Origin: a virus
Lineage: Duplodnaviria > Caudoviricetes
IMG/VR virus record: IMGVR_UViG_3300045971_000096
Span: 1 to 54,559 of that record
Strand: one strand, 5' to 3'
DNA length: 54,559 nucleotides
Shown: in pieces, positions 6,364-45,500 of the stretch
Layout of the letters: each line of letters starts with the position of its first letter
Position numbering within the stretch: position 1 is the stretch's first letter
Program-made: the position numbers and the translations under genes
Notes under the pieces: generated by a model
Database searches by the model: none
Told to the model about the DNA's origin: nothing
What the model saw: only the letters and a program-made list of their open reading frames with translations

Positions 6364-6396
6364 TAACGTATCCTGACAACATAAAATGATATTACA

Positions 6397-6402
6397 TATT
6401 TA
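6397..6402 (-). promoter_or_regulatory. Late promoter TAAATA for gp13-gp14-gp15 operon
   Basis: ATAAATA about 34 nt upstream of gp13 ATG. Confidence 0.7.
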
Positions 6403-6434
6403 TGCTATCTGGAAAGTTTTAGTCGTTCAATCAG

Positions 6435-6440
6435 TAAATA
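6435..6440 (+). promoter_or_regulatory. Late promoter TAAATA for LysM-like ORF
   Basis: TAAATA followed by GGAGA RBS and ATG at 6463. Confidence 0.65.
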
Positions 6441-6462
6441 GACTATCAATCGGAGATAAGAA

Positions 6463-6687
6463 ATGAAAATCAGCAAACGTATACAAGCCAAATCACATAT
6501 GTTTATGCCAGGCGATACAGTGCAAGCAGTTGTCAAAAAGTTCAACTTGCATGATGTTACTAAAGAAGAAATGTGTCAACTAATCGATCAGTTTAAGGAT
6601 ATAAACCCACCATTAGTTCTTAAGCCAGGGATAAATGCCTTAATCCCAATCTTAGATAGACATCAAGATAAAGTCTTTACCCATTGA
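6463..6687 (+). CDS. Small LysM-like domain protein
   Basis: H.FMPGDTVQAVVKKFN...FKDINP..VLKPG...LIP matches the LysM pattern; good RBS. Confidence 0.55.
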   Translation: MKISKRIQAKSHMFMPGDTVQAVVKKFNLHDVTKEEMCQLIDQFKDINPPLVLKPGINALIPILDRHQDKVFTH

Positions 6688-6889
6688 GATAATCAGCTAG
6701 AGTGTCAATATAAGCTTCTAGCTCTACTTTCCTGCTAGTCATGGTAGATAGAGCCATACTGACTGCAGCAGCACCATGATTACGTGAATGTCGATTAAAA
6801 TCTTCGCCCCGTAATCTTGCTATGCTTGCTGATACTAGCTTGTGCTCAGCAATAAGCTTCTCCAGATACTCTTGGGAGAAATGATTCAT
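6677..6889 (-). CDS. Hypothetical small helical protein (probable start MNHFSQ at 6889)
   Basis: AAGGA RBS before ATG 6889; own sigma70/T4-early-type promoter. ORF track starts at 6931. Confidence 0.6.
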   Translation of the reverse strand: MNHFSQEYLEKLIAEHKLVSASIARLRGEDFNRHSRNHGAAAVSMALSTMTSRKVELEAYIDTLADYLNG

Positions 6890-6910
6890 ATGTTTTTCCT
6901 TAGGTTTCGG

Positions 6911-6960
6911 CTTACGCCACCATTTTAGCATTATTCATTATAATCTAATGGTGGCGTAAG
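6911..6960. repeat. Perfect 14-bp inverted repeat
   Basis: CTTACGCCACCATT (6911-6924) and AATGGTGGCGTAAG (6947-6960). Confidence 0.9.
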
Positions 6961-6965
6961 TAAAC
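6937..6965 (-). promoter_or_regulatory. Early-type promoter GTTTAC-N17-TATAAT
   Basis: Minus strand reads GTTTAC TTACGCCACCATTAGAT TATAAT; GTTTAC is the T4 early -35 consensus. Confidence 0.7.
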
Positions 6966-6971
6966 TTGAGC

Positions 6972-7367
6972 TTAGAAGAAGTCTGATAATTTATCGTCGT
7001 TTCGATCTTCAGTTAATTTTTCTATTCTTCTGCGTTCTCTGTATAAGGATAGAATAAAGTAGCTGTTTAGAAACATGTAGAAGCCAACCAAGAAGTCATA
7101 TGATAGCCAATCGTGACTTTCAAAATCTTTACCCTGTGTTATGATGTAAAAAATTCTGAACGTAAAGAAACATGCTGTGAGTATCGAAATACCTGCGACA
7201 ATATATCCATTACGAATAACTTTTGGATTCAACTCAGCATCAAACTTTATGGATATGTAGTCTGGGTAATGAAGCAGAAAAGGCAGCATGATCAATCCAC
7301 CTACTAATGATAGCAGTCCTGAAAAGAAGGACACTGCTAAATCAGCAAAAATCATTTCCATTGTCAT
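6972..7367 (-). CDS. Membrane protein with about 3 TM helices (holin-like candidate)
   Basis: Three hydrophobic stretches and a highly charged C-terminus; starts 1 nt after the upstream late gene. Confidence 0.55.
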   Translation of the reverse strand: MTMEMIFADLAVSFFSGLLSLVGGLIMLPFLLHYPDYISIKFDAELNPKVIRNGYIVAGISILTACFFTFRIFYIITQGKDFESHDWLSYDFLVGFYMFLNSYFILSLYRERRRIEKLTEDRNDDKLSDFF

Positions 7368-7368
7368 A

Positions 7369-9678
7369 TTATAAACTCGCTAGGTGATCTTTCTCTTCTT
7401 TGCCTAAACGCTTTTCAGCGGCAGCAATAATCTCTTTCTTGTGTTTCTTAACTTCAATGTCTCCCCACTTGTCAGCTGTCACAAGCTCTGGTTCTGTACC
7501 TGGCTTCCCGAATACCACGTTGACACCATTGTAGTCGTCAAAGTTGCTACTCATTTCGCTGCCCATAACAAGAACCATTACTCCATCAGGCATATGGCTT
7601 ACATCATAGCCTTTGTATGTTGGGGTTGCTGCTTCACCAACATATTCAGATGGCTGCTTTAGAAGCGTGAGACGATCTTTTACGTCATAAGCCATAACCA
7701 AATATTGCTGCGATGCTGCTAAGTTGCGGCGATCTTGATCATCCCATGCCTTCTCATATCCTTCTTCATAGTCCTTGTTTGACTTTGATCCCTTTGGGTA
7801 AGGGTTCTTTGGTTCTTTCTTACCCTTAGCAGTGTAAGTGTAGTACACATACTTTCCAAGAGCCTTAGCTTTTGGGTCAGACTCTTCAGCGGCTTCTTCA
7901 ACATACCCTGCTGAATCTCTACGCTTAGCTTCTGCTTTCAAAGCCTTAAGACCTGAAGTTGCATTGCTATCACCCATCTTAAGTTGTGATTCAAAGTCCT
8001 TGATCATCTCTTTAAGCTTGTCATCTGACAAAGCTCTTACAGCTTCCATATCAACTTCTTCAGCTACTTTAGTTGGGGCTGTAATGCCATATACTTGTTT
8101 CAAATGATTCTTATATGCAAGGCGCATATCCTTCCATTCCTTCATTCCTTCTTCAAATGACTTCTTGAAAGCACGTGCGACCCCATCAATGTCATAAGCA
8201 AATGCTTTTGAGAATTCACCCTTCTTATCATCTTCAGTATGAGCAGCTCTCATAAGCTGTTGCCAAAATGGTTCACCTTCTTCGCCAAGGATGCCGCGAG
8301 GGATCATCTTCATCATATCGCGAATCAAGCTTTCACCAACACGATTTTTAGCTTCATGTTCTGCTTGATTGTTGTCGCGTCCTTTCTTAACAGCCCGGAA
8401 GAAATCATCCCAATCAAGCGGGTCAGACTCAGCAAAATCAGCAAAATCGTTTTTGTTAACGTACTTCTCAACGTCGATAAGCTTCTTAACTTTAATAACA
8501 CTACCATCAGTAGCTACTAGAGTTGTCGGTTTAGTTACGTCCATCAAGTATGAGTAGTCATCACCCTTGAACCACATCTTGCCACCCTTCTTCTTAAGGT
8601 ATGCAATAATTTCTTTTTCTAGTTGTGCTGGTGTAATGTTCTTTTTCCAATCTTTATTGTCATATGTCAAGCCCCATTCTTTGAGAGCTTCTTCTTTAAC
8701 AGTTTTAGACTTGAAGATGTTCCAAGTGCGATCACCTTCACCATCAATGTCGCTCAACGCAACTTGAACTCCATCTTTATCTTTGAAGATCCAACGACCA
8801 TCTTTGTCTGTTGATTTAGTTGTAGGACCAAAACGTTCCTTCATAAGCTCAGTAGCTTTAGAAGAAGATGTTGTGTAGTAGGAATCGTCCTTAGCTTCTG
8901 ATGTAAGACCACGCTTCTTCATTTCACGATCAAGAACTTTGCGCTGTAAGCCGCGAGGAGTCTTGTCACCAGCTTTAGCATCCTTGCCAAATGGGAATCC
9001 AAAATCACCCGTCTTAGCTAGACGTTGAACTGTTTCGTCGTCATAACCTTTATTACGCTTGACAATATCTTTAGGGTCAGCAGGTTTTTCGCCACCTGGA
9101 CCTTCAGCTTCCTTATCCCATCCAGCCATACCACGCTTAACGCTCTTGATACCCTTCTTGATGGTATCAACAACACCTTCTTGTGCAAGATGCTTCTTCA
9201 TGAATGCTTGACCAAGTGACTCATATGTTTGACCACTCAATGCACCAAGTGGTGTAGCTTCTTTGTATGCTGATACGAAGTCGCTTGCGAAGTCTTCATC
9301 ATACTGGAAGTAATAGACTGCTGAACGACGACCAATATCTTTCTCAGCAAGCTTAAAACCAGCTGCAAGAATTTCTTCTTCTGTTGTGAGGTCTTTAGGA
9401 AGACGTGATGCAAGATCATCAGCATAACGCATTTCTTGCTTGGGCGTCATTTCATTTTCTGGTTGTGGTATCACTTGTTCTTCCTCTTTTACTTTAGTTA
9501 TCTTTGTTAGTTCTAAGACATCAGTCTTGTACCATTCTTTGATCTGGCTTGATGTCCAAGATGCAGGAAATGATGCTATTGATGTAATCTTTTTGCCATC
9601 TTTCTTGACAATTACTTTATAGTCTTGCTTTTTCTCTTTAGCTTCTGCCTCAGCAATAGTAGTAAGTTGTTTGAGCAT
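7369..9678 (-). CDS. Putative internal head polyprotein, 769 aa, K/E-rich
   Basis: Late promoter; leader MLKQLTTIAEA; about 10 hydrophobic-X-E sites separating unrelated segments; immediately downstream of gp23. Confidence 0.6.
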   Translation of the reverse strand: MLKQLTTIAEAEAKEKKQDYKVIVKKDGKKITSIASFPASWTSSQIKEWYKTDVLELTKITKVKEEEQVIPQPENEMTPKQEMRYADDLASRLPKDLTTEEEILAAGFKLAEKDIGRRSAVYYFQYDEDFASDFVSAYKEATPLGALSGQTYESLGQAFMKKHLAQEGVVDTIKKGIKSVKRGMAGWDKEAEGPGGEKPADPKDIVKRNKGYDDETVQRLAKTGDFGFPFGKDAKAGDKTPRGLQRKVLDREMKKRGLTSEAKDDSYYTTSSSKATELMKERFGPTTKSTDKDGRWIFKDKDGVQVALSDIDGEGDRTWNIFKSKTVKEEALKEWGLTYDNKDWKKNITPAQLEKEIIAYLKKKGGKMWFKGDDYSYLMDVTKPTTLVATDGSVIKVKKLIDVEKYVNKNDFADFAESDPLDWDDFFRAVKKGRDNNQAEHEAKNRVGESLIRDMMKMIPRGILGEEGEPFWQQLMRAAHTEDDKKGEFSKAFAYDIDGVARAFKKSFEEGMKEWKDMRLAYKNHLKQVYGITAPTKVAEEVDMEAVRALSDDKLKEMIKDFESQLKMGDSNATSGLKALKAEAKRRDSAGYVEEAAEESDPKAKALGKYVYYTYTAKGKKEPKNPYPKGSKSNKDYEEGYEKAWDDQDRRNLAASQQYLVMAYDVKDRLTLLKQPSEYVGEAATPTYKGYDVSHMPDGVMVLVMGSEMSSNFDDYNGVNVVFGKPGTEPELVTADKWGDIEVKKHKKEIIAAAEKRLGKEEKDHLASL

Positions 9679-15690: not shown

Positions 15691-18600
15691 TTAAGCCCTA
15701 AATCCTGTCTGTTTTTCGAAAATGGTTGGTATTTTCGCTGGACTGAATCTAGATTCAGGTGCTGTTGAACTCGTCTTATCATTTACCATTTGCTGTAATA
15801 ATTGTGCCGATAAGGCAGTATTATCAGCAATTGCTGTTAGCTGTTTTATAGATGCAGCATCAGCTACATTCATAATGTTTGTTGTAGCATTTACACTAGA
15901 AGAGTCTGCAACAACTGGCTTATTATTTACTTGCTGATTTTGTTGATCAGTACCTGCTAAAGTAGAAATAGGAGCGACTGGAGCTTTAATTACTGGTTGA
16001 GCAACGATAGGTTGAACTGCAGGAATCTCTGATACAGGAGGAATTGCAGGTACAGGAGGAATTGCAGGTACAGGAGGAATTAGCGTTGAAGATAAAGCCT
16101 TCATCTCTCTAGGCGATGGTAATACAACTGGAATTTCTGGTTCTACTTGTTCCTGCTGTACAGGCTTTGCTATTTGTACTTTATCTTCTTGAACCTTTTG
16201 AACAGGCTTTGCAACTTGTATCGCAACTGGTGCAGCCGGAATTGGCGGTGCTGCTTGAACTATAGGTGAAACATTTATTTCAGGTTTAACAATAAGTGGT
16301 AAGTCTGTTTTAACAGGCTCCTTTTCCCTAGTGTCAACCTTAGTTGGTGTAACATCAGAAGTCTTGACAACTGGCTGATCAAGCGCCTTAGTGATAGGCT
16401 TAGTAATATCTGAAGCATTCTGAAGTATTACAGCAGTGGCTGCACTTATGCCACTCGCAGGTCCAGCAGTCATTTTTGATGCTTGATCAGCAATGTCTTG
16501 TGGTATTAATGATGTTGCTAATTGCTTCTGCTCTTTAGGCACAGCTTTCACAGGAGGAGGTGTAACTGGTTCCTCTTTTTTCGGTGTAACTTTAACTACT
16601 GGAGGTGCAACTGGTTCTGGTGCAGGCTCAGCCTTTACAGTTTGTTTCGCTACAGGAGGTGGTGTAACTGGTTCCTCTTTTTTCGGTGTAACTTTAACTA
16701 CTGGAGGTGCAACTGGTTCTGGTTCTGGCTTCACAACCGGTTTTGCTACAGGAGGAGGTGTAACTGGTTCCTCTTTTTTTGGTGCAGGTTTTGCTACTGG
16801 TGTTTCATCTTTAGGATTTTCCTTCGATGGTCCAAACAGTTCGTCTTTGTGCTTATATAAACTTATGCCACCACCAAGTGCGGCGCCTAATGCACCTCCA
16901 ACAACTGTACCCATAGGTCCAAGAAATGAGCCAAGCATTGCTCCTGTTGATGCGCCTTCTAAAGCAGCACTACCTACCTGTAACCCAGCACCAACTTTTT
17001 CATGCCCAGATGCAGTAGCTGCATCACCTAGCATGCTAACACCCATACCAGCAATACCTGCAACGCCAGCCTTGCCAAGGCCTGTGCTCATTACACCCTT
17101 AGCTGCACCAGGTAATCCTCCGGCAGCCTTACCTTCAGTAATCGCTGTACCTAATTTGCCGAGTGCACTATCCTTACCGAAGCCGCCAAGGGCCTTAGTC
17201 GTAAAGCCAGCTTGAACAGCTAGTCCTAATAACCCTGTTGTCGCGCCATATAAACCTGTTAATAGAGCATTATTTGCAATAGATTCAACGGTGTTAGCAA
17301 CATTACCAGCTGTTGCAACTGCTTGTGAAGGCTTAGCTAATTCTTTAGCTTTATCAAACTGATCTTTACTAATAGCTTGATTAGTTTGCGTTGCTTTAAC
17401 TAATGGTTCATTCGCTTTAATAGCTGCTTCACCAGCACCTGTACCCTGAATAACTTCATATTTAGCTTCTAGCCCTGCCTGAGCGGCAAGATTACCACTA
17501 CCAACATACTGTGCTTGATCTTTTACTCTGCGTTTTGCTAGCTCTTCTCTATTAGCATTTAATGCAGTTGTTTCCTCACCCGTTGCAGCTACACCCTTCA
17601 TTGCTGTCTGCATAGATGTCATAGCCTCTTCGGCGCTGAATCCATTCGTGATCATCTGTTGATACAGCTGACCAGCTTCTGTTATACGTGAATCTAATTT
17701 TTCACGTTTGGCTGCTTCTTGCGCTTGAATAAGTACTTGTGCTTGTTCATTTGATATTCCGCGAAGTACTAATTCTTTTCTACGGGATACTAGATCATCT
17801 GCATACACTTTAGCACTTTGCTTATCTAATCCGAGGAGTGTCTGTGAAATACCTTCGGTATTATAAAGTTCTGAATTAAGCTTGAAGAATTGTTCAGCTG
17901 TTATACCTGTAACCTGTGCAACATCTTGCCACGCCTTCATTGACTTATCAATATATGCGTTAAGTTCATCGCCATTCTGAGAATCGATATGGGCAGTATC
18001 AAGTGCAGCAGTAACAGCAGGCCCAATTAATCCAGCCGATTGTTTAAGGTTGAACCCATATGCTTTAAAAGTATCACCAAACTGAGCACGCAAACCATCA
18101 AATTCTTTTTTGCCATAAAGAGCCATGACTCTTTTATTTTCTTGAAGAAACTTTACAGTTTCTTCAAATGACATTCCCATCTTAGCTGACAAAACTGACA
18201 CATCTGCGAATGATGCAGATATCTGTGCTATATTAAAATCGAATAGCTCTTTTGAAAATCTACTTAAACCTTCTTTAGCTTTAGAATATCCCGCAGCAAT
18301 AGTTGCATCTGCAGCTAAATGTTTTGCTAGAGCTACACCAACACCATCTGACAGCTTAGCTTGAATTTTTATTAATGTTCTGCCAGCTTCTGTTGCTACT
18401 TTGACAACTTGCTTATCAATTTCCTTAGCTGTACCATCTAGATTATTAGCAAATTCTGCAATAGCAGCCGATGCAACATCGGTTTTCATTGCAAAATCTT
18501 CAATCTGTTTGTCGGTAGCGTTTGCGTCTAATCCTCGTACAGTTAACCCTTGCGAAATTAATTGCTTAAGACCTATACGTAGAACCTTCTCTATCTCGTC

Positions 18601-19410
18601 GACAGCGCCGACTTGTCCTTTTATATTCTCTTTATCCTTATCACTGCCGCCAGTCTGTTTAGCTAGATCATGAATGTCTTTGATACCAAATTGCTCAAGG
18701 TTACCAAATGTATCAGAAATTGCAGTCTGCGCATCGCCCATTTTAAGACGAAGTTTCTTAAAATGCTCCGGCTTAAGATTATCCTGTATGCCTTTAGCTG
18801 TATCATCCCATAAATCGTTTTGTCTTAGCATACTTTCGCCAAGACCTTCAGCGGACTTACTTAATTTACTAATGAAGAAATCATATTCTTCTGTGCCTTC
18901 ATAAAACATGTCGCGGCTTGTCAACAGCGAAGCACTTAGTAATGACGCATTTAGTTGTGACTTAGCAAGTGTATTTGTAAATGCACCTGTAGTTTTAGAT
19001 AGTTTACTCATCGCCAAGGAATGAGCGGCAATACTATTCAGACTAGTCTTTGTAAATGATTCGGTTGCATCAGCGTAGCTGCTAACTAAACCCGAAGATT
19101 GTTTTAAAATCTCATTATATGCTTCTTGAATAGCAATGGATTCTTTAGTAGCAACTCCTAGACGACTGGTCTGTTTACCATAATTATCAGCAGCTTCTTT
19201 AAGAGCTGCTGCATAATTTTTTAAACCTTTAACTGTTACTTTTGTTGCTTCTTCAGTATCTTTTTGTCCACTATCTGATCTAGACGTTTGACGCGGTTCA
19301 GAATCTGACCGCGAAGACTGTCTAACAGTAGCCATCCGTCCGTTCAATAACATTTCTGTTAAGGCGGTCGTAAGTCTATCAATTTCCTGCGGGTTTAAGC
19401 GTGTTGCCAT
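15691..19410 (-). CDS. Tape-measure-like / tail-length protein with Pro-rich C-terminal region
   Basis: Long Ala/Lys/Gln helical protein, Gly-rich hydrophobic segment, divergent from gp26, late promoter. Confidence 0.6.
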   Translation of the reverse strand: MATRLNPQEIDRLTTALTEMLLNGRMATVRQSSRSDSEPRQTSRSDSGQKDTEEATKVTVKGLKNYAAALKEAADNYGKQTSRLGVATKESIAIQEAYNEILKQSSGLVSSYADATESFTKTSLNSIAAHSLAMSKLSKTTGAFTNTLAKSQLNASLLSASLLTSRDMFYEGTEEYDFFISKLSKSAEGLGESMLRQNDLWDDTAKGIQDNLKPEHFKKLRLKMGDAQTAISDTFGNLEQFGIKDIHDLAKQTGGSDKDKENIKGQVGAVDEIEKVLRIGLKQLISQGLTVRGLDANATDKQIEDFAMKTDVASAAIAEFANNLDGTAKEIDKQVVKVATEAGRTLIKIQAKLSDGVGVALAKHLAADATIAAGYSKAKEGLSRFSKELFDFNIAQISASFADVSVLSAKMGMSFEETVKFLQENKRVMALYGKKEFDGLRAQFGDTFKAYGFNLKQSAGLIGPAVTAALDTAHIDSQNGDELNAYIDKSMKAWQDVAQVTGITAEQFFKLNSELYNTEGISQTLLGLDKQSAKVYADDLVSRRKELVLRGISNEQAQVLIQAQEAAKREKLDSRITEAGQLYQQMITNGFSAEEAMTSMQTAMKGVAATGEETTALNANREELAKRRVKDQAQYVGSGNLAAQAGLEAKYEVIQGTGAGEAAIKANEPLVKATQTNQAISKDQFDKAKELAKPSQAVATAGNVANTVESIANNALLTGLYGATTGLLGLAVQAGFTTKALGGFGKDSALGKLGTAITEGKAAGGLPGAAKGVMSTGLGKAGVAGIAGMGVSMLGDAATASGHEKVGAGLQVGSAALEGASTGAMLGSFLGPMGTVVGGALGAALGGGISLYKHKDELFGPSKENPKDETPVAKPAPKKEEPVTPPPVAKPVVKPEPEPVAPPVVKVTPKKEEPVTPPPVAKQTVKAEPAPEPVAPPVVKVTPKKEEPVTPPPVKAVPKEQKQLATSLIPQDIADQASKMTAGPASGISAATAVILQNASDITKPITKALDQPVVKTSDVTPTKVDTREKEPVKTDLPLIVKPEINVSPIVQAAPPIPAAPVAIQVAKPVQKVQEDKVQIAKPVQQEQVEPEIPVVLPSPREMKALSSTLIPPVPAIPPVPAIPPVSEIPAVQPIVAQPVIKAPVAPISTLAGTDQQNQQVNNKPVVADSSSVNATTNIMNVADAASIKQLTAIADNTALSAQLLQQMVNDKTSSTAPESRFSPAKIPTIFEKQTGFRA
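16033..16081. repeat. 18-nt tandem repeat, ~2.7 copies (encodes PAIPPV)
   Basis: TACAGGAGGAATTGCAGG x2 plus a partial copy. Confidence 0.9.
16550..16785. repeat. ~100-nt tandem repeats (periods 102 and 96 nt) encoding PEPVAPPVVKVTPKKEEPVTPPPV
   Basis: Near-identical copies start at 16550 and 16652; partial copy at 16748. Confidence 0.9.
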
Positions 19411-23073: not shown

Positions 23074-23733
23074 CTACATCAAACCACTCCACCTCGGGTT
23101 AAGATGGGAGTCCACATGCTCCACAATATACCCGTGATGGCGCTTATAAAATAATGCTTCCCATCTATTAGCACTAGCTGTTCCTAACTTACCAAGCTTA
23201 GGACGCAAGATGATAAAACTAATTTGATCTGGTGGGATAACTAGATTCTCTACATAGACTGGTTCTTGCGCATTTGCAAACTCAATCTTATGAAGTGTTC
23301 TAACTTCCTTCCGAATCATCTTATCATCTCTAAGTCTAGGATGAGCATCCTTTACTTCACTAATCTCAAATGTTCCAGACGGGAACTGTGCAGAGTGGTG
23401 AGAGCTAGGACTAGGAGTGATCAATGTTTTCTTTCCTTTGTTCTTAGAAAGATAACTAATGATAGCATCAATGAATGCTGTCCTAGCTCTGAAGCTAATC
23501 GCTGGTCTCTGCGTTCCTAAAGCTGCTTCCATTTGCTCTTTTGTAGGAGCAAAGAACATTGTATTGCCAAACTGCTTTGCAATCCATGGTCCTAAGAATG
23601 TTGATGCACGAGAATACTGTTCATAGTAGCATGCAACAATCTTTAGCAAGTCTGAAAACTCTGTCGTTGGACGGTAAACATCAAGCTTAGCATTCCAACG
23701 GTTAATATCTTCTACTGTTTTTACAGTATCCAT
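23074..23733 (-). CDS. Hypothetical protein (weak resemblance to TnpB N-terminal WED/REC region)
   Basis: 219-aa ORF, GGGAG RBS, TAATG-coupled to the HNH gene; family call is speculative. Confidence 0.6.
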   Translation of the reverse strand: MDTVKTVEDINRWNAKLDVYRPTTEFSDLLKIVACYYEQYSRASTFLGPWIAKQFGNTMFFAPTKEQMEAALGTQRPAISFRARTAFIDAIISYLSKNKGKKTLITPSPSSHHSAQFPSGTFEISEVKDAHPRLRDDKMIRKEVRTLHKIEFANAQEPVYVENLVIPPDQISFIILRPKLGKLGTASANRWEALFYKRHHGYIVEHVDSHLNPRWSGLM

Positions 23734-24467
23734 TATACACTACTCCCATTATCTAGGTATAAGAAATGTGGCGAACCTGCCCCGCTCTTGCCCCATCCTA
23801 GATTAATAGCCATTTCTTTCTTGCTGGGATAAACTGTTGCACCATTATCTATAGTGCACTTACGACTTTTTGCTGCTTTCATTTTTTGAATAGCCTCCGG
23901 TGTTCTGTTTCTGGCTGCATGTCCTATTTTCTCTCTAGTTTCTAGGCTAGGATTTTTAGTCCATGAACTTACAATATCTCTAGCACTTTTATTTTTAAAC
24001 CTTTTATACTGTGCGTCGCTCATTTTTTTCCGAGTTTCTGCAGAAAACTCTCTTCCTTTCTGGGTTTCACTTAATAGCTTTCTGCTATATTCATACCACT
24101 TAGAATTTGGAAAATATCTTTCCTGCAGTTTACTATTTCGTATTAACATAAAGGAAAATGCATATGACATTTTGCATCTTTTAAGTCCGGTTGTCATTTT
24201 AGTTAGCAGCAAATGCACTATAAAATGTTCTCTAGCACTTAGACTAACTATATTATCTGCGGTATCTGGACCACCTAAAGATGATGGCACAATATGATGC
24301 CCCTCTGAATATGTTAACTTATCTATTCTTACTAATGCTTTTTCTATTAGCATTGCATACCATCGAGTATACTTATTCTTTTGAAACAGCGGCACGCCAG
24401 AACTCTGGATGTTTAATAAGTTCGTCAAAATACGAGACATAGATTTTTCTTTCATTTGGAATTTCAA
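23733..24467 (-). mobile_element. Free-standing HNH homing endonuclease with NUMOD3-type repeats (true start possibly GTG near 24395)
   Basis: NKYTRWY, EGHHIVPSSLGG.D...NIV.LSAREHFIVHLLL, SAETRKKMS, SLETREKIG; AT-richer than neighbours. Confidence 0.9.
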
Positions 24468-24969
24468 GGCTAAGCATTACACACGGGGTAGGTATAAATG
24501 TAGCAACAAGAATATTTATATTATTCCACTTGAAGATAAGAACAGGATTACGATTTATTTTTGCAGCATCTGTTTCTGCTTCTTTGATCCACTTAAAAAC
24601 ATTTGCTGTGCCTGATACTAGTTGCGGAAAACTGTCGGGAGTTTTATAGGCCTTACACTCTATAGAATGAAGGAATGTAAATCCTTCTTTCTTTTCATTT
24701 ATAGGAACAACGTCAGACGTGAAGAGGGCGAGTGCCTCATCACCAAACATCTGTCCAAACTTTTCAAAATTCTTTCCACCTGTCCTTGCACCAGAGCCAG
24801 GTGTGCGCATAAAATTCAACGGCTCTAAAGCAGCCGATAATTTTTTAGCTATTTGAAGCTCGAATCCCGAACCTTTTGCTTTACCCATTCCTGGCTTAAG
24901 CTTCCGCTTCTCTTTTTTAAGCGGTGTCTTTTGTGCTGGTTGTTCACCAATAGATAGTTGATCTGTCAT
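24373..24969 (-). CDS. Holliday junction resolvase-like PD-(D/E)XK nuclease
   Basis: KAKGSGFE..IAK.L, RTPGSGA, SDVV, IECK, PVLIFK. Confidence 0.8.
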   Translation of the reverse strand: MTDQLSIGEQPAQKTPLKKEKRKLKPGMGKAKGSGFELQIAKKLSAALEPLNFMRTPGSGARTGGKNFEKFGQMFGDEALALFTSDVVPINEKKEGFTFLHSIECKAYKTPDSFPQLVSGTANVFKWIKEAETDAAKINRNPVLIFKWNNINILVATFIPTPCVMLSLEIPNERKIYVSYFDELIKHPEFWRAAVSKE

Positions 24970-25356: not shown

Positions 25357-27117
25357 TTATGTTACTCCGAGTTCCGATCCACTCTCATCTAAAATCTTAG
25401 AGAACCCGTTTTCCTTGCGGATAATAACAGCTCTGTCAAACCGACCAACTGCTTCTGGTCTGTGAGAAATAATCCAAAGTCCAAGATGTTCATCTCGTGC
25501 TTTAGTCTTTAGCAGTTTGAAAATACTTTCAACACCAGACCCATCTAGTGAAGCATCGATCTCATCAATGAATAAACAATTTACCCATGCATGCAAATGA
25601 TGCAGCACATCTCTAAATGCTAATGATAGAGAAAGGTTAACACGTTTCTTTTCACCACCAGATAGATTACCGAAGTCTAACTCACGGCCATATTCAGAAA
25701 CGGTACAGCTCATATCATCGTCAAACTTTACAACGTGGGGTAGTCCAGTCTCCTTTGTATAACGCATAAGCTGCTTGTTAAGGAAAGGAATTGTCTTGCT
25801 GATAATCTTACGACGAATGAACGAGTTCTTATCTGTAAGAAGCTTCAACAGGAATTGCTGATGCTCTAACTCTTTACGGATGTTATCAAGATCAGAATAG
25901 GAAACAGTTTTGACTGCTTGCTTTTTCAGTTCTTCATGAGCCTCAATGTGAGGGTTAGTAGAAGCAACGAGATCGTCGATCTTAGACTGTGCTGTGAGAG
26001 CAGAACTTTCTGCTTTGAGTGCTGCTTCGAGGCTAGCAAACTTCATAACACCATCAGCTTGATAGCGCTGATCTTCTAACTCTACAGATTCAGCTGCCAT
26101 GTTATCAATCTTGAGAGTAAGAGCAGCAAGCTGAACCTTCTTACGTTCGAATGATTGCTGCTTCTCAACCAATTTATCTGCAGCTCCTTCATATGCTTGC
26201 AAACAGTAAGGGCACTTAGCTTCAATAAGGTGCTTCAGTTCTCCATCGAGCTTCTTTACATCACTTGTGAGAGTTACCTTTTCACTGCCGAGGATACGAA
26301 GCTGACTGTTGATTTCATTCTCTTGCTTCTTCAAGTCAGCCACAAGTGAATGGAGTTCTTTTTCCTCTTCCATGTTCACCGTGCTGATCAAAGCAAGATC
26401 ACCCTTAAGGGTTGCTACTTGCTTATCACGATCTTCATCCCAACGAACTACACGGGCTGCCGCATCTTTAAGCTGCCGATTGTAAAGAGCTACTTGACCT
26501 TCTTGTTCCTTGATGATAGCTTCTTGAATTGAAATGCTACCTTCAGTTGTCTTAATGATTTCCTTCAGCTTGATTGCTTTCTCTGTAAGCAAGGTGATGT
26601 TGAATAGCTCTTCAATCTGTGCACGCTGCTGTGAGACAGGCATCTGCAAGAATGGAGTTGAACTACCAGAGAAGATAACAACCTTCGTGAATAGTTCGTA
26701 GCTCATGCCAACTATCTCACATACAAACCGATCATTCTCAGCAACACTGTCAAGTGTTACGTCTTCACCATTCATTGAGATGTTGATGTTGAACGTTTCA
26801 CCGCGTTGACGATGGATTTCAAACTCGTCTTCACCCTTCTCAAAGATCAATCTAACTTCCATTAGAGTGTTCTTTGAACTGTTAGTGGAGTTGATTAGCT
26901 TCTGAAGAGAGATGTTGTCAAATGGTTTGTTATAGAGAGCATAACAGATTGCGTTGATGATCGTTGTTTTACCTGCACCGTTATTGCTTGAGGTATCAAT
27001 GTTCTCACCCTGAATAAGGGTGCTCATGATATCGGAAAGATCAATGGACGTAGCCACGGCTCCGAAACTCATGAAGTTTCGGACTATCAGCTCTTTGAAT
27101 TTAAAAGGTGTGCTCAT
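25357..27117 (-). CDS. gp46: Recombination ATPase, Rad50/SbcC-like
   Basis: NFMSFG, NGAGKTT, CPYC hook, LSGGE, LFIDE, ISH. Confidence 0.96.
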   Translation of the reverse strand: MSTPFKFKELIVRNFMSFGAVATSIDLSDIMSTLIQGENIDTSSNNGAGKTTIINAICYALYNKPFDNISLQKLINSTNSSKNTLMEVRLIFEKGEDEFEIHRQRGETFNINISMNGEDVTLDSVAENDRFVCEIVGMSYELFTKVVIFSGSSTPFLQMPVSQQRAQIEELFNITLLTEKAIKLKEIIKTTEGSISIQEAIIKEQEGQVALYNRQLKDAAARVVRWDEDRDKQVATLKGDLALISTVNMEEEKELHSLVADLKKQENEINSQLRILGSEKVTLTSDVKKLDGELKHLIEAKCPYCLQAYEGAADKLVEKQQSFERKKVQLAALTLKIDNMAAESVELEDQRYQADGVMKFASLEAALKAESSALTAQSKIDDLVASTNPHIEAHEELKKQAVKTVSYSDLDNIRKELEHQQFLLKLLTDKNSFIRRKIISKTIPFLNKQLMRYTKETGLPHVVKFDDDMSCTVSEYGRELDFGNLSGGEKKRVNLSLSLAFRDVLHHLHAWVNCLFIDEIDASLDGSGVESIFKLLKTKARDEHLGLWIISHRPEAVGRFDRAVIIRKENGFSKILDESGSELGVT

Positions 27118-27518
27118 TGAAAGAATTTAATTAGGTGACCTGAAGATACGATAGGTCTAAATGCATACATCCATTCTTTATCGATATTGACTTTACTATG
27201 GACAAACATCAGATCTAATTTTATACCCTGTAGTCTGTTAGGTCCATGCAGTAATTTTATCATACTTCCATTATCAAAGACAATGCAACCATTGGATTGA
27301 CCTCGGCGGGTAATGGTAGACTTCATCCAGTTTGGAACTGTTTTCTCTTCATCGAGTATCTCATGGAATATTTCAGCTAACCATACTTGCTCTGGAACTA
27401 CAATACCGATAGTCTTATTATCAGCACGCCAACAGTCTGCTAAAGTATAACGAATCATGTCAATGACAGTCATAGTATATGTGTCATCTAGAATATCAAA
27501 GTTGTCCATATATTTCAA
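27114..27518 (-). CDS. Degenerate large-terminase ATPase-like fragment
   Basis: KTIGIV...AEI...VPNWM...IVFDNGS.I...LQG..LDLMFV...RPIVSSG parallels the gp17 ATPase core; Walker A and Walker B acidic pair absent. Confidence 0.6.
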   Translation of the reverse strand: MKYMDNFDILDDTYTMTVIDMIRYTLADCWRADNKTIGIVVPEQVWLAEIFHEILDEEKTVPNWMKSTITRRGQSNGCIVFDNGSMIKLLHGPNRLQGIKLDLMFVHSKVNIDKEWMYAFRPIVSSGHLIKFFQ

Positions 27519-28542
27519 TCAGCTTTTCAGCATTAATGGTTGTTGTTCCTGAGATACCAGTTTGAAGCATTCTGATAACAGCATCATTCAATGATCCCAT
27601 ATCAAAGTCTTCCATCTCTTCACCAGCAATTGCTTCCTTACGTTCAGCAAAGTTTTCTTCTAAAGAGAATTCACGCAGCCCCAGGGTCTTAATCATTTCT
27701 TCACGTAGCGTTTGCGCTTCTGAATAACCAATGTCGATGTCAATCAAACACCGAACACGACACTTAGCAGGAAAATCTAACTGTCCATTCAATACGTCAG
27801 AGAGTTTTACTTTACGGTACTTAGGGCAATCACCCCAATCAATAAAGGCCACATCGTCATCTCGTACATCCAAAATGCACATCCCACGGGCATCATCCCA
27901 TGCATCACCGTAGTCCATTGGGAAAGTGTTTCCGATATAAACGACATTGTCAATTGATTGTCTCTTGTGGTAGTGACCAGAGAAAATGTAAGTAGGTCCA
28001 GCAAACAACTTGTGGTCTGGTCCGTGCTCCATCTTACGATCTGTTCCAGTGATGATGAAGTTTCTAAATTCGAAGTGGCCTAGCCAATAAGGAAGTCTAG
28101 AATATTGTGCAAGGTCTGCATACTCATTCTTGAAAAGGAATGGGCACACTAGCATCTTGTCAATGACAGTTGGTTCATTCACTAATGTAACGTTAGCGTA
28201 CTGTTCAAAAATCTTAGTTGAAAATACTTTTCTATTCTCTCTGTGATATAGATCGTGGTTACCAATGATGATGTAAACAGGAAGTCCTAGAGAGTTTAGA
28301 TCTTCTAGAGCTTGCTGTGCATAGGTCATCGTCATTACGTTGACAGCATTCCGATTTTCAAACCAATCGCCCATGAATACTACGTGAGTGATGTCTCCGT
28401 CTTCACGGACATTCTTACAGAACCAGTGGACGAAGTCCACACAGTCCTGATTATGAATTGCAGAGTTGTTCTTCTTACCAAAGTGGATGTCGGTAAACAT
28501 CGCAACCTTTTTCATCGAAGAAACCTTCTTGCTTATTTGCAT
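27496..28542 (-). CDS. gp47: Recombination nuclease, Mre11/SbcD-like
   Basis: TDIHFG, GDWFE, GNHD, GHFE, SGHYH. Confidence 0.96.
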   Translation of the reverse strand: MQISKKVSSMKKVAMFTDIHFGKKNNSAIHNQDCVDFVHWFCKNVREDGDITHVVFMGDWFENRNAVNVMTMTYAQQALEDLNSLGLPVYIIIGNHDLYHRENRKVFSTKIFEQYANVTLVNEPTVIDKMLVCPFLFKNEYADLAQYSRLPYWLGHFEFRNFIITGTDRKMEHGPDHKLFAGPTYIFSGHYHKRQSIDNVVYIGNTFPMDYGDAWDDARGMCILDVRDDDVAFIDWGDCPKYRKVKLSDVLNGQLDFPAKCRVRCLIDIDIGYSEAQTLREEMIKTLGLREFSLEENFAERKEAIAGEEMEDFDMGSLNDAVIRMLQTGISGTTTINAEKLIEIYGQL

Positions 28543-28553
28543 AGGTCCTCCGA

Positions 28554-29432
28554 TTACTTAGCGGTTTTCTTTGCGACAACTTTCTTTACAGCAACCTTCT
28601 TTGCTGGTTTTTCTATAACCTTCTTAGCAGCAGGCTTCTTTACAGATACAACTTTATGTACAGTTGATGCTTTTTGTGCTTTTGCGACAGGGGTCGCTTT
28701 GGCCGGAACACTTCGCACCTTCTTTGGCTTAGGTTCAGGTTTGGGTTTGATTGTAATGTTTCCATCTGCGTCAATCTCAATATCTTTCGGACCATATCGG
28801 GTGACGGGGCCTGGGACTCGGTGCTGATAGCGAAGTTTTGCTTCCTTCGGAGTCTTAGGAATAAATTCCACGTCGCCTGCTGGGACTGCGTCAACTTTAA
28901 GAACTGTTGCTGCTTCTGCATCCAGTTCCGCGATCTCGTTCTCATCCAATTCTGGTAGAAAGTATTCATCTGATTCCTTAATTTCAAAGTGAACTTCTTC
29001 CTTTTCGCCTTCACCAAAATTATAACTTGGGTTTGAACCTGCATCAATCAGAAGGGCATCACGAATGTTACGATGCTTCTTTTCGTCAGCAAGATACTGA
29101 AGGAAGGAGTTATGGATACCTGTGGTGTAATAGGAGAAGGGGTTGTTAGACTTTTCTGGATTAAACTTGAGTGCATTATTACACAAGTTCATCACAGCTG
29201 CAGAGACCATATCTTCGCGGAATGAATAGCCGATGAAGTTAGCCTTACGCGAATAACGTTCAGCGATCATCTGAATCATTCGGATTAGTTTGTCTGTTAC
29301 CTTGCCACCAGCTTTAGCTTCAATAACTGCTGGTAGAAGAACGCCATTGGTAACGTAATGTCCCTTAGTAGAAGTTGATTTCTCTCTCTTCTGTTTAGGC
29401 TTCTTTTCTTTTGTCTTTTCTTTGGTAATCAA
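28554..29432 (-). CDS. gp55: Late transcription sigma factor with Lys/Ala-rich C-terminal tail (TTG start)
   Basis: HYVTN..L, IAERYS...NFIGYSFREDM, FNPEKSNNPFSYYT...NSFLQ....EKK; GGAGA RBS. Confidence 0.93.
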   Translation of the reverse strand: MITKEKTKEKKPKQKREKSTSTKGHYVTNGVLLPAVIEAKAGGKVTDKLIRMIQMIAERYSRKANFIGYSFREDMVSAAVMNLCNNALKFNPEKSNNPFSYYTTGIHNSFLQYLADEKKHRNIRDALLIDAGSNPSYNFGEGEKEEVHFEIKESDEYFLPELDENEIAELDAEAATVLKVDAVPAGDVEFIPKTPKEAKLRYQHRVPGPVTRYGPKDIEIDADGNITIKPKPEPKPKKVRSVPAKATPVAKAQKASTVHKVVSVKKPAAKKVIEKPAKKVAVKKVVAKKTAK

Positions 29433-29471: not shown

Positions 29472-29501
29472 ATTATACACCGTTATTATAATTTAGTAAA
29501 C
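29472..29501 (-). promoter_or_regulatory. Sigma70/early-type promoter for gp55-47-46 (G-TTTACT-N17-TATAAT)
   Basis: Minus strand GTTTACT AAATTATAATAACGGTG TATAAT. Confidence 0.7.
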
Positions 29502-39538: not shown

Positions 39539-42500
39539 ATGGCAAGTCAAAATCTAGACCTAAAAAAATTACTACCACTTTCAACTAGAAATGAGATGTT
39601 GGACAGTTTGATGTCTAACATGTTCAATAACTTTGTCTCAGAAGAACAGAGCGTTTTAGTTAATGGTAGAGTAGGTAAAACCGCAGACGGTGATTCTAAC
39701 ATTCAAGCAGCTAATCTCGATCGCGAAATTAATGCTCTTATACCTGCATTATACACTAAGGTCGGGTCTGAAGAAAACATTTTTACATTTGAAGATATTC
39801 TTAATAAGCTTAATGCGCTTGATACTGATACCGGTAATCTTCGTGAGTGGATGGCTGAGCAGTCATTCAATTACTCCTTGCCGGTTAATTACGATAAGTT
39901 TATTAACTACACCAACTATTACTGGATAGGTAAAGAATTATTGGCTGGTGGAAAAATAGCAGCACGTGCTTACAACCCAACTGTCGAACCTGAGTTCTAT
40001 TTAATATCAAAGCCCGCTCCAGATGATCTAGTTAAGATGGATGTCGATCTGGCTACGAACACTGCAACAGACGGGTATACCCAACTATGGGCTAATGGAA
40101 GACCACCAGAAGTATTCACGATTGCGTTTACTTCTAATCGTACATTCACTGTTACTAGTGATTTCGATGGCATGCAGAATTTACCTGGTAATGCTACACC
40201 AATTCAAATACGTATTAATAATGGTCCGTTAATGATGGTTGGCAATTTACCGTCAATTGTACCAACAGCACAGACACTAGTTACACTTTATGCAAGTGGT
40301 ATGGATCTAGTGTCATTCGTTGTAACAGTTGGATCAAACCATTTTTCTTCTGGTGACGTGTTCACTTTGAAGATTACATATTTCACGAGTAACATTGTTG
40401 TTACACTAGATACGATTAATCCTATTGGTAAGGGTGCGATAAGCGGTTCGCAGACAGTATCGCAGATGGCTACTATTGATGGGGTCAGGCTCACTGGCGG
40501 CGAACGCATCTTAGTTAAAGATAACCATGATGGCACCGACGGTATATACCACGTGTATACAGATAGACAGTGGGAAAGAACAAGCGACGCTGCTTTAGAT
40601 TCAAACTTAGTGATTGATTCAACTGTCCACGTTTTGAATGGCACTCAAGCCGGTAGTAACTGGATAATTTCATCTGAAACATTAAATGTTAATCCTACTA
40701 GTTCATTTACCAAGTCAGTTAATTTTACGTATGAATCTAATTTCGAATCTCAGATAAATGAATGGCAAAGAGTTAACTACTGGCTACATCGCGATGACTT
40801 TGCAGATGCTGCATCATTAGGAGTTACCTTTAATAAATCTATTCGTGCTAACAGACCTATTATCGAATATCGCAATTCTATTGAAAAGAATTTAGCTAAA
40901 GATGCTAATGGACGCCCAACAGTCGGTAGAAATATTCGTCAAGATAAAACTGAATTTAATCAAATTCCGCAATTTAATCTTTATAGATATGATGGCACGC
41001 ACCAAAGCTCATCATCTGGTTTGTTTTATTATGTAGAAGATCCAGATTATCCAACTGACTTGGTACTTCGCCGCCGCGTAAAGACTACTGCTGATTATGA
41101 TTTTATTTTTGGTATGGGTATCAAGGATGCAGATGGTCGCTTGCTGTATTATAAAGATAATGGCCGTCTAGTATCCGTTTGGCGTGAGGGTGTTATTGCT
41201 AACACGTCAACTCAACCTGTTATTTGGTCGGGTGCACTCAATAAGGGCATGCTAGTTCTTGATGAAATTACTTCCATTGCTGATAATCAAGCATGGACAA
41301 TATCTGCCATAAATGACACTACATTTTCTGTTATTGGTTCGCGCAGCGGTAGATTAGCTGATGCAACTGTCGGAGTACCATACCCTGGATTAGATCCATA
41401 TTCTACAGCAGAAGTAAAATTTACTATTAATGCTGGAGCTGAGCCTTTTGTTTATGGCGAAAATTTTACGTTCATTATTCACACAAAGATTACTCCTCGT
41501 TATGTAAAAAAGAATCTTGACGGATCAATTGTAAATTATCCAGGTGGTGTTAACGCCGATTTTAATGATGGCACAATAACTGGTGCATGGATGAATCCAG
41601 CCCGCATGTTTGAAAATCTTGAACGTGAAACTAGATCAGAAATTAATTTCGGTGACTTGCTTAATCATACTCGTAATGTAATTAAAAACCAAAATGGATT
41701 TATTGGTACATCATACGGTATTAACAATCTTCGTACACTCACATTCAATCCTGGCCTTGGCGGATCAATCAGAGAGTTTGGCAGCAACTTTCCGCTACTT
41801 GCGTCGATGATGATTCAAAATGACATATCACCACTGACTATTTTAGATTTTGCTGAACAACAGTATTTAACAGCACTATCTAGTATAGATCAGTTTATGG
41901 TCAACGATTATCCTGTATATCTTACTGAAAAGACAGGCGTAACCACCACTACTATTTCACCAGATGCAGTCGATATTCAAGCACTAGAAACCTATTTTGA
42001 AGATCTTCGTACTAGTAATATACTACTTAAGAATACATTTACAGATACATCTGCTAAGGTAGCCTGCTGGCCCGCAACACTCCCTATGATGGGCATATGC
42101 CCAGCAGTATTGCCAACTATTGTATTCGACAATGAGCTTGGCCTGGATATGATTGTTCACCATGATGGTCATATTACCCCAGTCTCTCATAGAAATATAG
42201 ATTTTGATATGTTACTCGTCAAGACACAGGTAACACGATCAGATGGAACTGTTGCTGCTGGTATTTTTTCAGATACTACACCGTTAAGTCCATATGCTAG
42301 ACAGTTATGGTACAAAACTTCCACAACACGAGTGTGGATGTTTAATGTTACCACTGATGCTGTTTCTCCTGGCACCGGAAAAGACGGTGATATTTGGTTT
42401 ATTCGTGCTATTGGCGAGTTTAGATACTGGGATTCAATTGGTCAAACATGGTTGACATTAGCAGATCAAAACCCACTTAGTTACTGGGTAGAAATTTCAA

Positions 42501-45500
42501 CAGCCAATATTCGTAATAGCTTAGTCTTAGCTGTTGAAAATAAGTTGTTTGCTTCTGTACATCCTTCTATGAATGTTTCAGTTGATATATTTGGCGCGAC
42601 AAGTTCAGCATACTCTAAAATTGAACTTGCAAAATATTCTGCAAAATATGGATATGACACATATGTTCCTGACTATAATGCAGCAGATCCATTCACCTGG
42701 AACTATAGAATTAAATTAGGTCAAGCCCGTTGGTTTGACGTATATAAAGCTTACTTTAACGGGTTGGCTGCTACTACATGCAGACCCAATCTTGAGCCCT
42801 GGAGATTTGGAACAGTAAGTATTCCACCATCTATTAATAAGCCAGCAAATTGGGACAGTACATATAAATCTAATGTCCAGACAACTGGCAATACTACTAA
42901 TGCAACAGTCGTAGCTACTGACAATATTCCACTCTTGAGTGGAGAAATTTTCATAGATGGAATAGTTGTCGGTGCCGGCGATATAGTATTGGTTATTAAC
43001 CAGAGTGATCCAATCTATAATGGACTGTATACTGCCGGTGTTGGTGGATGGGCACGGGTTGCTGTACCCATTGTTCATGGGCTAACAGTTATTGTTGCTG
43101 ATGGCGATAAGTATAAGGGCACAACTTGGGTGCAAACTGCAGTAGACCCAATATATGTTGCGCCTAATGTTGACCCATCATCTAATGCTCCATCTGTAAT
43201 AACTTTTGAACAATATAGACTTTGGTTATCGGTAATGTGGGATGATGTTAAAGCATATCGTGACATTCATTACCCTGGGCTCAAGCTTTGCGTTAACATT
43301 TACAATGATGAATTGCTCCCACCATACGTAAGTTCTGATAATATTGCTGGCAATGAATCACTGCTAACCGTACAACCATCAAATGCTGATATAGTTGGAT
43401 ACGCAAGTAGCTATTCTTTTGGCGAAAATGGTCCAATTGAAACTGCTTGGAAGAAATCTATTGAGTATTACTATGGTCTCGCACGTAGTTACTTCAGAAC
43501 AAACCCGCTTAAATTCCTGGACAAAACATGGGGTGACACTTACATAACAGTACCTGGCAATGTACGTGTAGAGCGAAATTTGATGGCTCCTATCCCTGCT
43601 AACAAGTTCCTACTACATGGTGAAAAGCTCAATATTATTAATTCATATCTTCCATATGAAGTCGCTAATCGTATTTCAGGTCTACCAACGCCATTAGATT
43701 TACCAGTTGCCATTGCCACTACTTCTGACATACTATTGACTGGCCTGCAAAAGATAGATGGCATAGACGTTGTTGTTAATGATCGAGTATTAGTTAAAAA
43801 TCAAATCATCCCTGCTGACAATGGCATTTATATTGTCTCTGCTGGCGCATGGACTAGAGCAACAGATTTTGATCAACCAGTGCAGATTAACTCTTCAGTT
43901 GTTTATGTCTTAGGTGGATTGTCAAATAAGTTAACTCATTGGGTCCAGACAGCCGCACTTACAGCTTTAGGTGATCAAATAGCATTTGAATATATCAGTG
44001 CATATGATTTTGAAGTAACATATTGCGGTGACGATTTAACTGTTGTTAGCATGACCAGCAGTGGAACATTTAAATCGTACATTACTGTTAATGATTTAAC
44101 TGCTCCAGTAAGCATCGTTGATAAAGGAATTCCTTATTCATTAGGCGAAAAATTATCTGTACGCTTTACAGCAGGTGTAATTGTTTATTCACATACACCT
44201 GCAATAGTTAAGAAATTTAATGGGCTTGGCCAAATATTCACAAACCTTTTAAGATATAATTATGTTGATACTGAACTATCAACAGCGGTTGCTTCTTACC
44301 GTGGATGGGCCGTTAAGCTTGTTCATAGACTTGGTGCGATGATTCGTCCAGATACGCTTACAATTAATACTACACAGGGCGATTTACCATCTACTGGTTT
44401 CAATGTCATATTGAAGAAGTCCATTGATACACAGAGTCTTTGGATTTCAGCATTACGTATTCAATTAGTTAAGCAGGGTTCTCGCAAGTTAAATTCAGAC
44501 GGTCTGTATGTTCCGCTTTCCGATGCTAGTGATTGGATCTTTAGAATCGAATCATATAATCCGCAGCACCCTGTTATTGATAAGTATACATTAGATGATG
44601 CTGGAGAATTCCAGACATTCTATGCACTTAATAAAGTAAACACAGATATAGCTTGGAAGAAATTTACTTCTAAAACTGTTCTAGAAACAGTTACTGTTCC
44701 AGTAGTAATAACCGGTCTTCAGAATGTTATCACTTATGTTTACGGGTATACTGATAGATTAGATGATATTGGCTGGACTATCAATACAGACTTTCCTATT
44801 ACAGATAGTGAGACTGGTAGAAACATAAATTGGCAATTAGAAATAGAAAAGCTTATTAATCGTGTTTATGGTGGAATGACTATTGGTCAAGGTCACATCT
44901 TGAATCCATTTATGGATAAATTATCCATTAATACTCCAGTTGGATTGTTAGGCAAATTTTCAGAGTCAAATTATATTGACGCGTATTCTATGCAAGCAGC
45001 ATATGACGTGTATGGTAAGGTGATACCTGTTAAATCTCTAAATGTTATTCGTACTGATGCTGGTACTACAGCCTATTCAAATACTCCAATATTTTCTGCC
45101 CATGTATTCATTGATGAATATGAACACGTTATCTTAATGAACCAAAAGTTCTCTGATGAATTCTCATCAGCTACTGTGTTCGATACATTCTTAGGTCTCC
45201 GCCTAAACACTGCTTATCTAAGTTTCATTAGACAGGCATATGCGAACCGCAAGCCAACGTTTAATGGTTTCTTCTTGAATGGCAATGACGTAAATCGTAA
45301 CATGTCATCCTCAATTAGCACCATATCAAATTACTATGATGCTAGTCAGACATTCTATGAACCAACAACTGCACGACATGGTTTGGCATTGTTAGGTTTC
45401 ACTCATAAAGATTACTTTAAAGCAATCAATGTAAATGATACTACACAGTTTAATTTCTGGAGAGGGTTGATTCAGGCTAAAGGTACTAACATGGCTATCG

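Follow-up and report, generated by a model that had tools for sequence, protein, structure and literature searches.

The 54,559-bp contig of an uncultured tailed phage deposited in IMG/VR (IMGVR_UViG_3300045971_000096; the whole of this stretch is called the window here) carries, between its homologues of T4 genes 47 and 46, a real gene for a non-enzymatic paralogue of the ATPase core of T4-type large terminase subunits (TerL). This gene, which we name mini-TerL (27114..27509, minus strand; 131 codons plus stop), is a copy of the TerL core that starts where the P-loop once stood and stops just short of motif III, and it forms an optional cassette at the gp47/gp46 junction in a clade of uncultured jumbo phages with a T4-type core. 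Bacterial Avs1-3 and Upx recognise tailed phages chiefly by the protein pattern of their large terminase, and the papers published from 2024 to 2026 do not settle why small terminase-like proteins, which are also bound by those sensors, are encoded by some phages. Mini-TerL is a new family within these recently recognised stand-alone terminase-ATPase-like accessory proteins, to which it adds a bare fold without any catalytic element, clearly derived from TerL, and both optional and very divergent among similar genomes.

Homology to the TerL ATPase Core

The original prediction, made from the DNA letters, relied on an alignment by eye with T4 gp17. Profile comparison recovered this alignment almost residue for residue, since positions 27-122 of a 15-member family profile aligned to residues 179-277 of gp17 (NC_000866) with an hhalign probability of 96.7% (E 4.2e-10), a significant match that lies far beyond chance. 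The same profile aligned to the TerL of the cultured jumbo phages XacN1 (96.2%) and RsoM2USA (92.3%), and the hidden Markov model of the family matched all eight T4-type TerLs tested at 29-57 bits (hmmsearch), with matches starting at the P-loop position. Moreover, PHROG 5989, annotated as 'terminase large subunit', was matched by the window protein (E 2e-7) and by six of its seven close relatives, and plain tblastn with the distant member P0009 matched 676 phage records, the 20 best listed all falling on TerL genes. Pfam PF03237 (Terminase_6N) was matched neither by the window protein at E<=10 nor by any of the 16 family members at E<=0.1; the Pfam matches of the single protein were at chance level, and phmmer and profile hmmsearch against PDB sequences returned nothing relevant. 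In a tree comprising the 16 minis, eight TerL cores and T4 vs.8, the minis were nested in no TerL clade, with long branches, and the source TerL lineage was not resolved. A second Terminase_6N match in RsoM2USA (L009) was set aside, as its sequence looks on inspection like a PhoH-type P-loop protein and not like a terminase fragment.

The predicted structure agrees with the profiles. AlphaFold2 runs gave a predicted local distance difference test score (pLDDT) of 76.4, with one good model only, from an alignment of seven rows, and of 83.6 from an alignment of 15 rows, for which all five models reached 82.0-83.6 and the predicted template modelling score (pTM) was 0.79. In Foldseek searches of the PDB, the top four matches of both models were T4 gp17 entries (E 3e-6 and 9e-7; TM-scores normalised to the query, TMq, of 0.68 and 0.75, respectively), followed in both searches by the TerLs of P74-26 and D6E, with Sf6 gp2 at rank 5 in the first and 20 in the second. 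By profile and by fold alike, mini-TerL is thus homologous to the ATPase domain of T4 gp17 (PDB 3CPE, 3EZK, 2O0H, 2O0J). Searches of BFVD returned 81 matches at E<=1e-3, the named top ones being terminases for the most part and, in a few cases, other uncharacterised phage proteins of small size, and the ESM Atlas returned unnamed viral clusters only, with terminase ATPase families at 0.87-0.89, a level to be taken as a lead.

Some of these structural matches are small proteins themselves. At E values of 2e-5 to 4e-4, BFVD listed uncharacterised proteins of 101-162 amino acids from the Gordonia phages Hedwig, NancyRae and Yeezy and from other phages, and proteins resembling a bare terminase core may occur repeatedly among unrelated phages. 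Acinetobacter phage AbTZA1 has between terS and terL an open reading frame (ORF) of 140 amino acids (L036 573-995; phrog_28229) with a local NGS...KG...hhhh pattern resembling that of the mini-TerL family, and its comparison with the family was not significant (hhalign probability 4.6%). BFVD also lists a 140-amino acid AbTZA1 protein, possibly the product of this ORF, among the proteins whose fold matches the mini-TerL model.

Lost Catalytic Elements and Retained Motifs

Judged by its motifs, mini-TerL is predicted to be catalytically dead. The absence of a Walker A motif and the replacement of the Walker B Asp-Glu by His-Ser, both pointed out in the original prediction, hold; in the hhalign alignment, MIYIDE of gp17 (251-256) is aligned to LMFVHS. 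Neither GK[ST] nor hhhDE occurs in any of the 16 family members, whose residue pair at the Walker B Asp-Glu position is H-R in nine cases and H-S, H-D, H-E, D-R, S-T, S-Q or W-T in one case each, and the stretch aligned with the P-loop (residues 1-12) is disordered in the better model. At the other end, the alignments reach T4 residue ~282 or XacN1 residue 198, that is, before the S/T-T-P motif of TerLs. Compared with the 610 amino acids of T4 gp17, the 131 of mini-TerL leave out not only the P-loop and the Walker B Asp-Glu but also motif III, the lid subdomain, the N-terminal region and the nuclease domain, the latter being excluded because the protein is too short to hold it. With the P-loop, Walker B Asp-Glu, motif III, lid and nuclease lost, mini-TerL could act only by binding. 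What remains invariant or nearly so is common to TerL: VPxW (LPxW/VPxW in the comparison with gp17), FDNGSxI (DNGSxI shared with gp17), the Gly of the RG motif and the Pro of the TerL motif LxPxxSxG. Comparing mini-TerL alleles can reveal the surfaces that the TerL core maintains once catalysis is irrelevant. Altogether, the profile, fold and motif tests support the earlier description of a catalytically dead mini-terminase ATPase between gp47 and gp46, and the lack of any profile or structural match, an outcome that the original prediction had said would count against it, did not occur.

The Gene and Its Family

The ORF originally proposed (27114..27518, minus strand, TTG start, 134 amino acids) exists, and all the peptide strings quoted for it occur in its translation. 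Translation almost certainly starts from the ATG at 27509, for a product of 131 amino acids, because all seven close homologues (49-100% identity, 129-131 amino acids) begin at the equivalent Met. A phmmer search of 1.84 billion representative proteins retrieved nine proteins at E<=1e-3, eight of which are small (99-133 amino acids, 27-51% identical to mini-TerL), and no longer or fused form was found among these matches. The ninth, P0012 (1507 amino acids), is a repeat protein matching query residues 4-26 only and was dropped as spurious. Across all members, which are 20-87% identical, lengths range from 99 to 158 amino acids. No match was found in 50,697 phage records for the window region (megablast) or the window protein (tblastn), and scans of viral contigs with the alignment of close members, or with P0009 and P0010, detected no relative. 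The 13 viral loci found with a wider alignment were all full-length TerL genes, with no small homologue among them. PADLOC and NCBIfam gave no match for four family members.

An Optional Gene at the gp47/gp46 Junction

The position claimed for mini-TerL between gp47 and gp46 was confirmed by the flanking ORFs. Upstream lies the gp47 homologue, an Mre11/SbcD-type metallophosphoesterase (27496..28542, minus strand; Pfam Metallophos, E 9.6e-8; its XacN1 match is annotated as 'recombination endonuclease subunit'), and downstream the gp46 homologue, a Rad50/SbcC-type SMC-like ATPase (25357..27117, minus strand; Pfam SMC_N, E 2.3e-21, and AAA_23, E 6e-16). The gp47 stop region overlaps the start of mini-TerL by 14 nucleotides (27496..27509, minus strand), and the mini-TerL stop overlaps the gp46 start codon in an ATGA (27114..27117, minus strand). 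A gp55-like late sigma factor (28554..29432, minus strand; phrog_234, E 1.4e-26) is the first gene of this same-strand gp55-gp47-mini-gp46 run, in which mini-TerL is dispensable, unlike T4 gp17, which stands beside the terS and portal genes.

Such a tight arrangement would suit a protein that regulates the gp46/gp47 (Rad50/Mre11-like) recombination nuclease or joins it as an accessory subunit, being made along with it by translational coupling. The 14-nucleotide start overlap is found again in the 28%-identical allele of locus L028 and is replaced by a 4-nucleotide ATGA start overlap in the allele of L042, and both also have the ATGA stop overlap with gp46, so that overlaps with both neighbours are seen in three alleles only ~20-28% identical (window, L028, L042); moreover, mini-TerL directly follows gp47 at all six loci with visible context. 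The distribution of the gene speaks against this proposal. Relatives of gp47 were retrieved from 17 viral loci (63-76% identical, and 36% in one case); the gp47/gp46 junction was visible in 15 of them, and mini-TerL was present at four of these junctions and absent from 11. It was present as a new 158-amino acid allele in L042 (E 6e-11) and in L047, L048 and L027 (the P0015 allele). At six junctions gp47 directly abuts or overlaps gp46 (L041, L043, L045, L046, L050, L054), two contain an unrelated small ORF without a match to the profile (L044, L049), and three have a short spacer and then a gp46 with an intein-like insert at its P-loop (L039, L040, L053). Among the cultured relatives, gp47 and gp46 are adjacent without the mini in RsoM2USA and fused in XacN1, and in both genomes the genuine TerL is the sole match of the family profile. 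Co-occurrence with gp46/gp47 is thus not obligate across the clade. The fused XacN1 gene (L003 3986-7285) is annotated as a single 'recombination endonuclease subunit' of 1099 amino acids.

The phylogenies of the flanking genes show the same patchiness. In the gp47 tree, L050, which lacks the mini, is sister to L048, which has it (100/100), and in the gp46 tree L050 adjoins the window plus L048 (99/100); L042, with a mini, pairs with L044, which carries other cargo. As close relatives differ in the content of the junction, mini-TerL must have been gained, lost or replaced among them, which speaks against an obligate role in an Mre11/Rad50-like complex. The junction of jumbo T4-core phages is an insertion hotspot for accessory cargo: unrelated small ORFs fill the slot in two loci, and in the 1,040-bp metagenome contig L005 mini-TerL is followed, instead of gp46, by an opposite-strand ORF (679-1038, minus strand; at least 119 amino acids, no PHROG match). 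The comparison between genomes given below, where gp46 is 86% and the gp47 C-terminus ~97% identical at a mini identity of 28%, is also unlike that of co-evolving partners, and on this evidence a gp46/gp47 accessory role appears quite improbable. The same 11 of 15 junctions without the mini, and the adjacent and fused genes of RsoM2USA and XacN1, also weaken the original suggestion of a regulator that connects recombination with packaging.

Selection and Allele Divergence

Mini-TerL is under purifying selection. The ratio of nonsynonymous to synonymous substitution rates (dN/dS) between the window and L005, the single homologue pair with DNA (78% identical), was 0.195 (dS 0.64), and that of the adjoining gp47 C-terminus was 0.034; for this one pair, neutral decay, which the original prediction had named as an outcome that would count against it, was not observed.

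Alleles differ widely between otherwise similar genomes. The P0015 allele occupies the identical slot, with the same 14- and 4-nucleotide overlaps, in the 239-kb contig G001 (locus L028), which is 86% identical to the window in gp46, 84% in the portal, 86% in the major head protein, 80% in the gp55-like protein and 71% in gp47 (~97% over its last ~110 residues). With 28%, mini-TerL diverges far more than any other gene of the region. At the nucleotide level, identity is 99% in the 90-nucleotide bin just upstream of the mini, 41-61% in four mini bins and 69% in a fifth that extends into gp46, within which it is again ~88%. A divergent mini between near-identical flanks indicates that old divergent alleles have been shuffled among otherwise similar genomes, and the members P0006 and P0003, identical apart from a swapped block at residues 21-33, also point to allele shuffling. 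Within gp47, the N-terminal two thirds (window 28542-27920 against L028) show 36-66% nucleotide identity per 90-nucleotide bin and the last ~110 codons 87-99%, a pattern from which the locus appears as a recombination mosaic with at least two breakpoints.

These observations bear on whether mini-TerL does anything at all. As a functionless passenger, it would be the relic of an ectopic TerL fragment that recombination or the traffic of homing endonucleases or inteins had brought to an insertion hotspot and that has not yet been lost. The junction is indeed a hotspot with varied cargo, homing endonucleases and inteins are common nearby (an HNH gene at window 23733-24467, a GIY-YIG gene in L028, intein-like inserts in the gp46 and TerL of relatives), and homology to TerL starts within a few residues of the P-loop intein site of the TerLs in L020, L022 and L023. 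A relic is, nevertheless, hard to reconcile with a dN/dS of 0.195, with an intact frame and stable length in 16 members down to 20% identity, with invariant fold-defining motifs and a confident fold predicted from the family alignment, and with start and stop overlaps kept in three divergent alleles; we regard a mere passenger as highly doubtful.

Terminase Sensing and the Possible Role of Mini-TerL

By analogy with proteins known to engage terminase sensors, mini-TerL may imitate the TerL ATPase domain where the phage meets the immune sensors that recognise terminase (Avs1-3, Upx), a reading to which we would assign a probability of roughly one in three. It is suggested by the Avs2-pocket precedent, by presumed expression before TerL, by dispensability and by allele turnover, and the combination of an optional cassette with the greatest divergence of the region favours some arms-race role, with mimicry at work in a conflict of phage with host or of phage with phage.

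The precedent comes from work on Avs2. The TerL ATPase domain alone activates EcAvs2, which seals the interface through a bridging second ATP that touches the terminase-bound ATP/Mg, and Upx has been modelled as binding unfolded core strands of the TerL ATPase (PMC13601566). Ksap1, Ksap2 and T4 vs.8, small proteins that are not terminases, occupy the Avs2 pocket and activate Avs2 (PMC13601566, PMC11564622); their natural function is an open question to the authors, who suggest anti-defence (PMC13601566). [quoted passage not shown] Both differ, however, in that the vs.8 translation shows GK[ST] and IIDE and the mini-TerL family has neither, in their PHROG assignment (phrog_1488 against PHROG 5989), and in locus and size, and no relationship between them was detectable (hhalign probability 0.2%; hmmsearch E 0.89). 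Ksap2 (Bas60_220) is the trigger of KpAvs2, with experimental binding to Avs2, and is reported to have no HHpred or Foldseek match to a known protein (PMC11564622), unlike the mini-TerL family, which is clearly homologous to TerL. Again, the Ksap2 of phage PaulScherrer (MZ501100.1, 111 amino acids; phrog_17458) showed no relationship to the family (hhalign probability 0.2%). Its gene (bas60_0220, L025 24605-24940) is wedged between those of NrdA and NrdB, the alpha and beta subunits of ribonucleotide reductase, and overlaps the beta gene, a placement between two subunit genes of an early enzyme that parallels gp47-mini-gp46. A literature search found no published report of dead terminase paralogues or terminase pseudoenzymes, and PMC13601566 was the only paper in it to mention vs.8 together with terminase.

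In such a role, mini-TerL would be made with the early/middle recombination genes, ahead of TerL, and would fill the sensor pocket but bring no ATP/Mg of the kind bound to terminase, to which EcAvs2 builds its bridge with a second ATP; it would thus compete with TerL and leave the activating interface incomplete. Conversely, and in the same arena, mini-TerL might itself be sensed, its diversity then representing escape, and the two outcomes are inseparable here. The most specific version, in which mini-TerL is a non-activating, nucleotide-free ligand mimic plugging the pockets of Avs1-3 (possibly Upx) before TerL appears, with loss of the ATP site as an adaptation uncoupling binding from activation and divergent recombining alleles tracking host sensors, is attractive in logic but distinctly unlikely; if true, this would be the first anti-defence protein working by imitating the pattern that its sensor recognises. 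Mini-TerL thus offers a compact natural probe for asking if mimics of this kind set off the sensing of terminase, escape it or obstruct it.

Several points weigh against a role in immune sensing. The decoy against Avs advanced by the original prediction is weakened, as Ksap1, Ksap2, vs.8 and the isolated TerL ATPase domain all activate Avs2 (PMC13601566, PMC11564622). Avs proteins are described as recognising terminases with <10% identity, which would make sequence diversification a poor escape route (PMC13601566). The divergence of the alleles could stem from old divergence plus recombination at an insertion hotspot, and not from ongoing positive selection, and the estimate of selection comes from one homologue pair. 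At the position aligned with the RG arginine conserved in TerL, the family varies, with K in six members, R in three, Q in four, I in two and C in one (n=16). Finally, the early/middle expression of mini-TerL would follow solely from homology with T4 genes 55, 47 and 46.

Alternatively, mini-TerL might modulate the packaging motor. The mimic would then bind a partner of the TerL ATPase (a neighbouring TerL subunit, TerS, the portal or the late sigma factor), either restraining the packaging or nuclease activity of its own phage early on or poisoning the motor of a co-infecting relative. In T4, gp17 contacts gp55, and the gp55-like sigma gene stands beside the early/middle genes with which mini-TerL is probably co-transcribed, going by the arrangement of the run. 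Mini-TerL retains the core fold together with those motifs that vary least among T4-type TerLs, the residue at the RG-arginine position is basic in nine of the 16 members, and competition between phages could account for divergent alleles. On the other hand, that residue is Q in the window allele, mini-TerL has neither the N-terminal region nor the lid subdomain of TerL, and the gene is dispensable in close relatives. Moreover, the partners of a phage's own TerL are conserved, leaving quick allele turnover unexplained unless the target is a competitor. A packaging modulator is therefore conceivable but rather unlikely, and mimicry of TerL towards immune sensors remains the reading that we prefer.

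Gene Neighbourhood and Other Observations

The window represents ~15% of a complete genome according to CheckV, and related uncultured contigs reach 358-368 kb. It encodes T4-type core proteins, namely a tail-sheath stabiliser, a neck protein, the major head protein, a prohead protease and the portal, and among cultured phages its gp47 homologue is closest to those of the jumbo phages Ralstonia RsoM2USA (46.7%) and Xanthomonas XacN1 (41.2%) by tblastn. A six-frame Pfam search with Terminase_6N (E<=1) found no terminase gene on the 54.6-kb window, which implies that the phage's own TerL is not on this fragment.

Promoter predictions for the region were at background. A weak sigma-70-like match, TTTACT-17-TATAAT (10/12), lies upstream of the gp55-like gene (29472..29500, minus strand), among nine promoter-like sites against 12.2 +/- 3.8 expected from shuffled sequence; terminator-like sites were likewise at chance level. 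The T4 late-promoter motif TATAAATA was found four times against 4.26 expected, and none of these sites is near the mini-TerL gene.

The HNH homing-endonuclease gene mentioned above (minus strand; phrog_655) overlaps by 95 nucleotides the end of a PDDEXK_15 endonuclease gene (window 24373-24969, minus strand), labelled RusA-like resolvase in PHROG, and in G001 the equivalent position is taken by a GIY-YIG endonuclease. Very large ORFs are also present in the window, at 15691-19410 (minus strand, 1239 amino acids, no PHROG match), 39539-48757 (plus strand, 3072 amino acids) and 48714-54455 (plus strand, 1913 amino acids).

Intein-like sequences were seen in both gp46 and TerL of related or similar phages. 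In L039, L040 and L053 (~5134-7404 in each), gp46 is interrupted exactly at the Walker A lysine by an intein-like insert spread over two ORFs, an 87-amino acid N piece with an intein-like start at its end and a 658-amino acid piece whose first ~125 residues end in ...SHN, after which gp46 resumes. The real TerL of G001 (L032 1273-2157 and 2618-3355) has intact Walker A and B motifs and an intein-like insert after the ATPase domain, with its halves in separate ORFs, which may be a split or frame-broken intein. In another T4-like clade (L018 and the 949-amino acid ORFs of L020, L022 and L023), TerL is interrupted directly behind the Walker A lysine by a large intein, at the site where the homology of mini-TerL to TerL begins.

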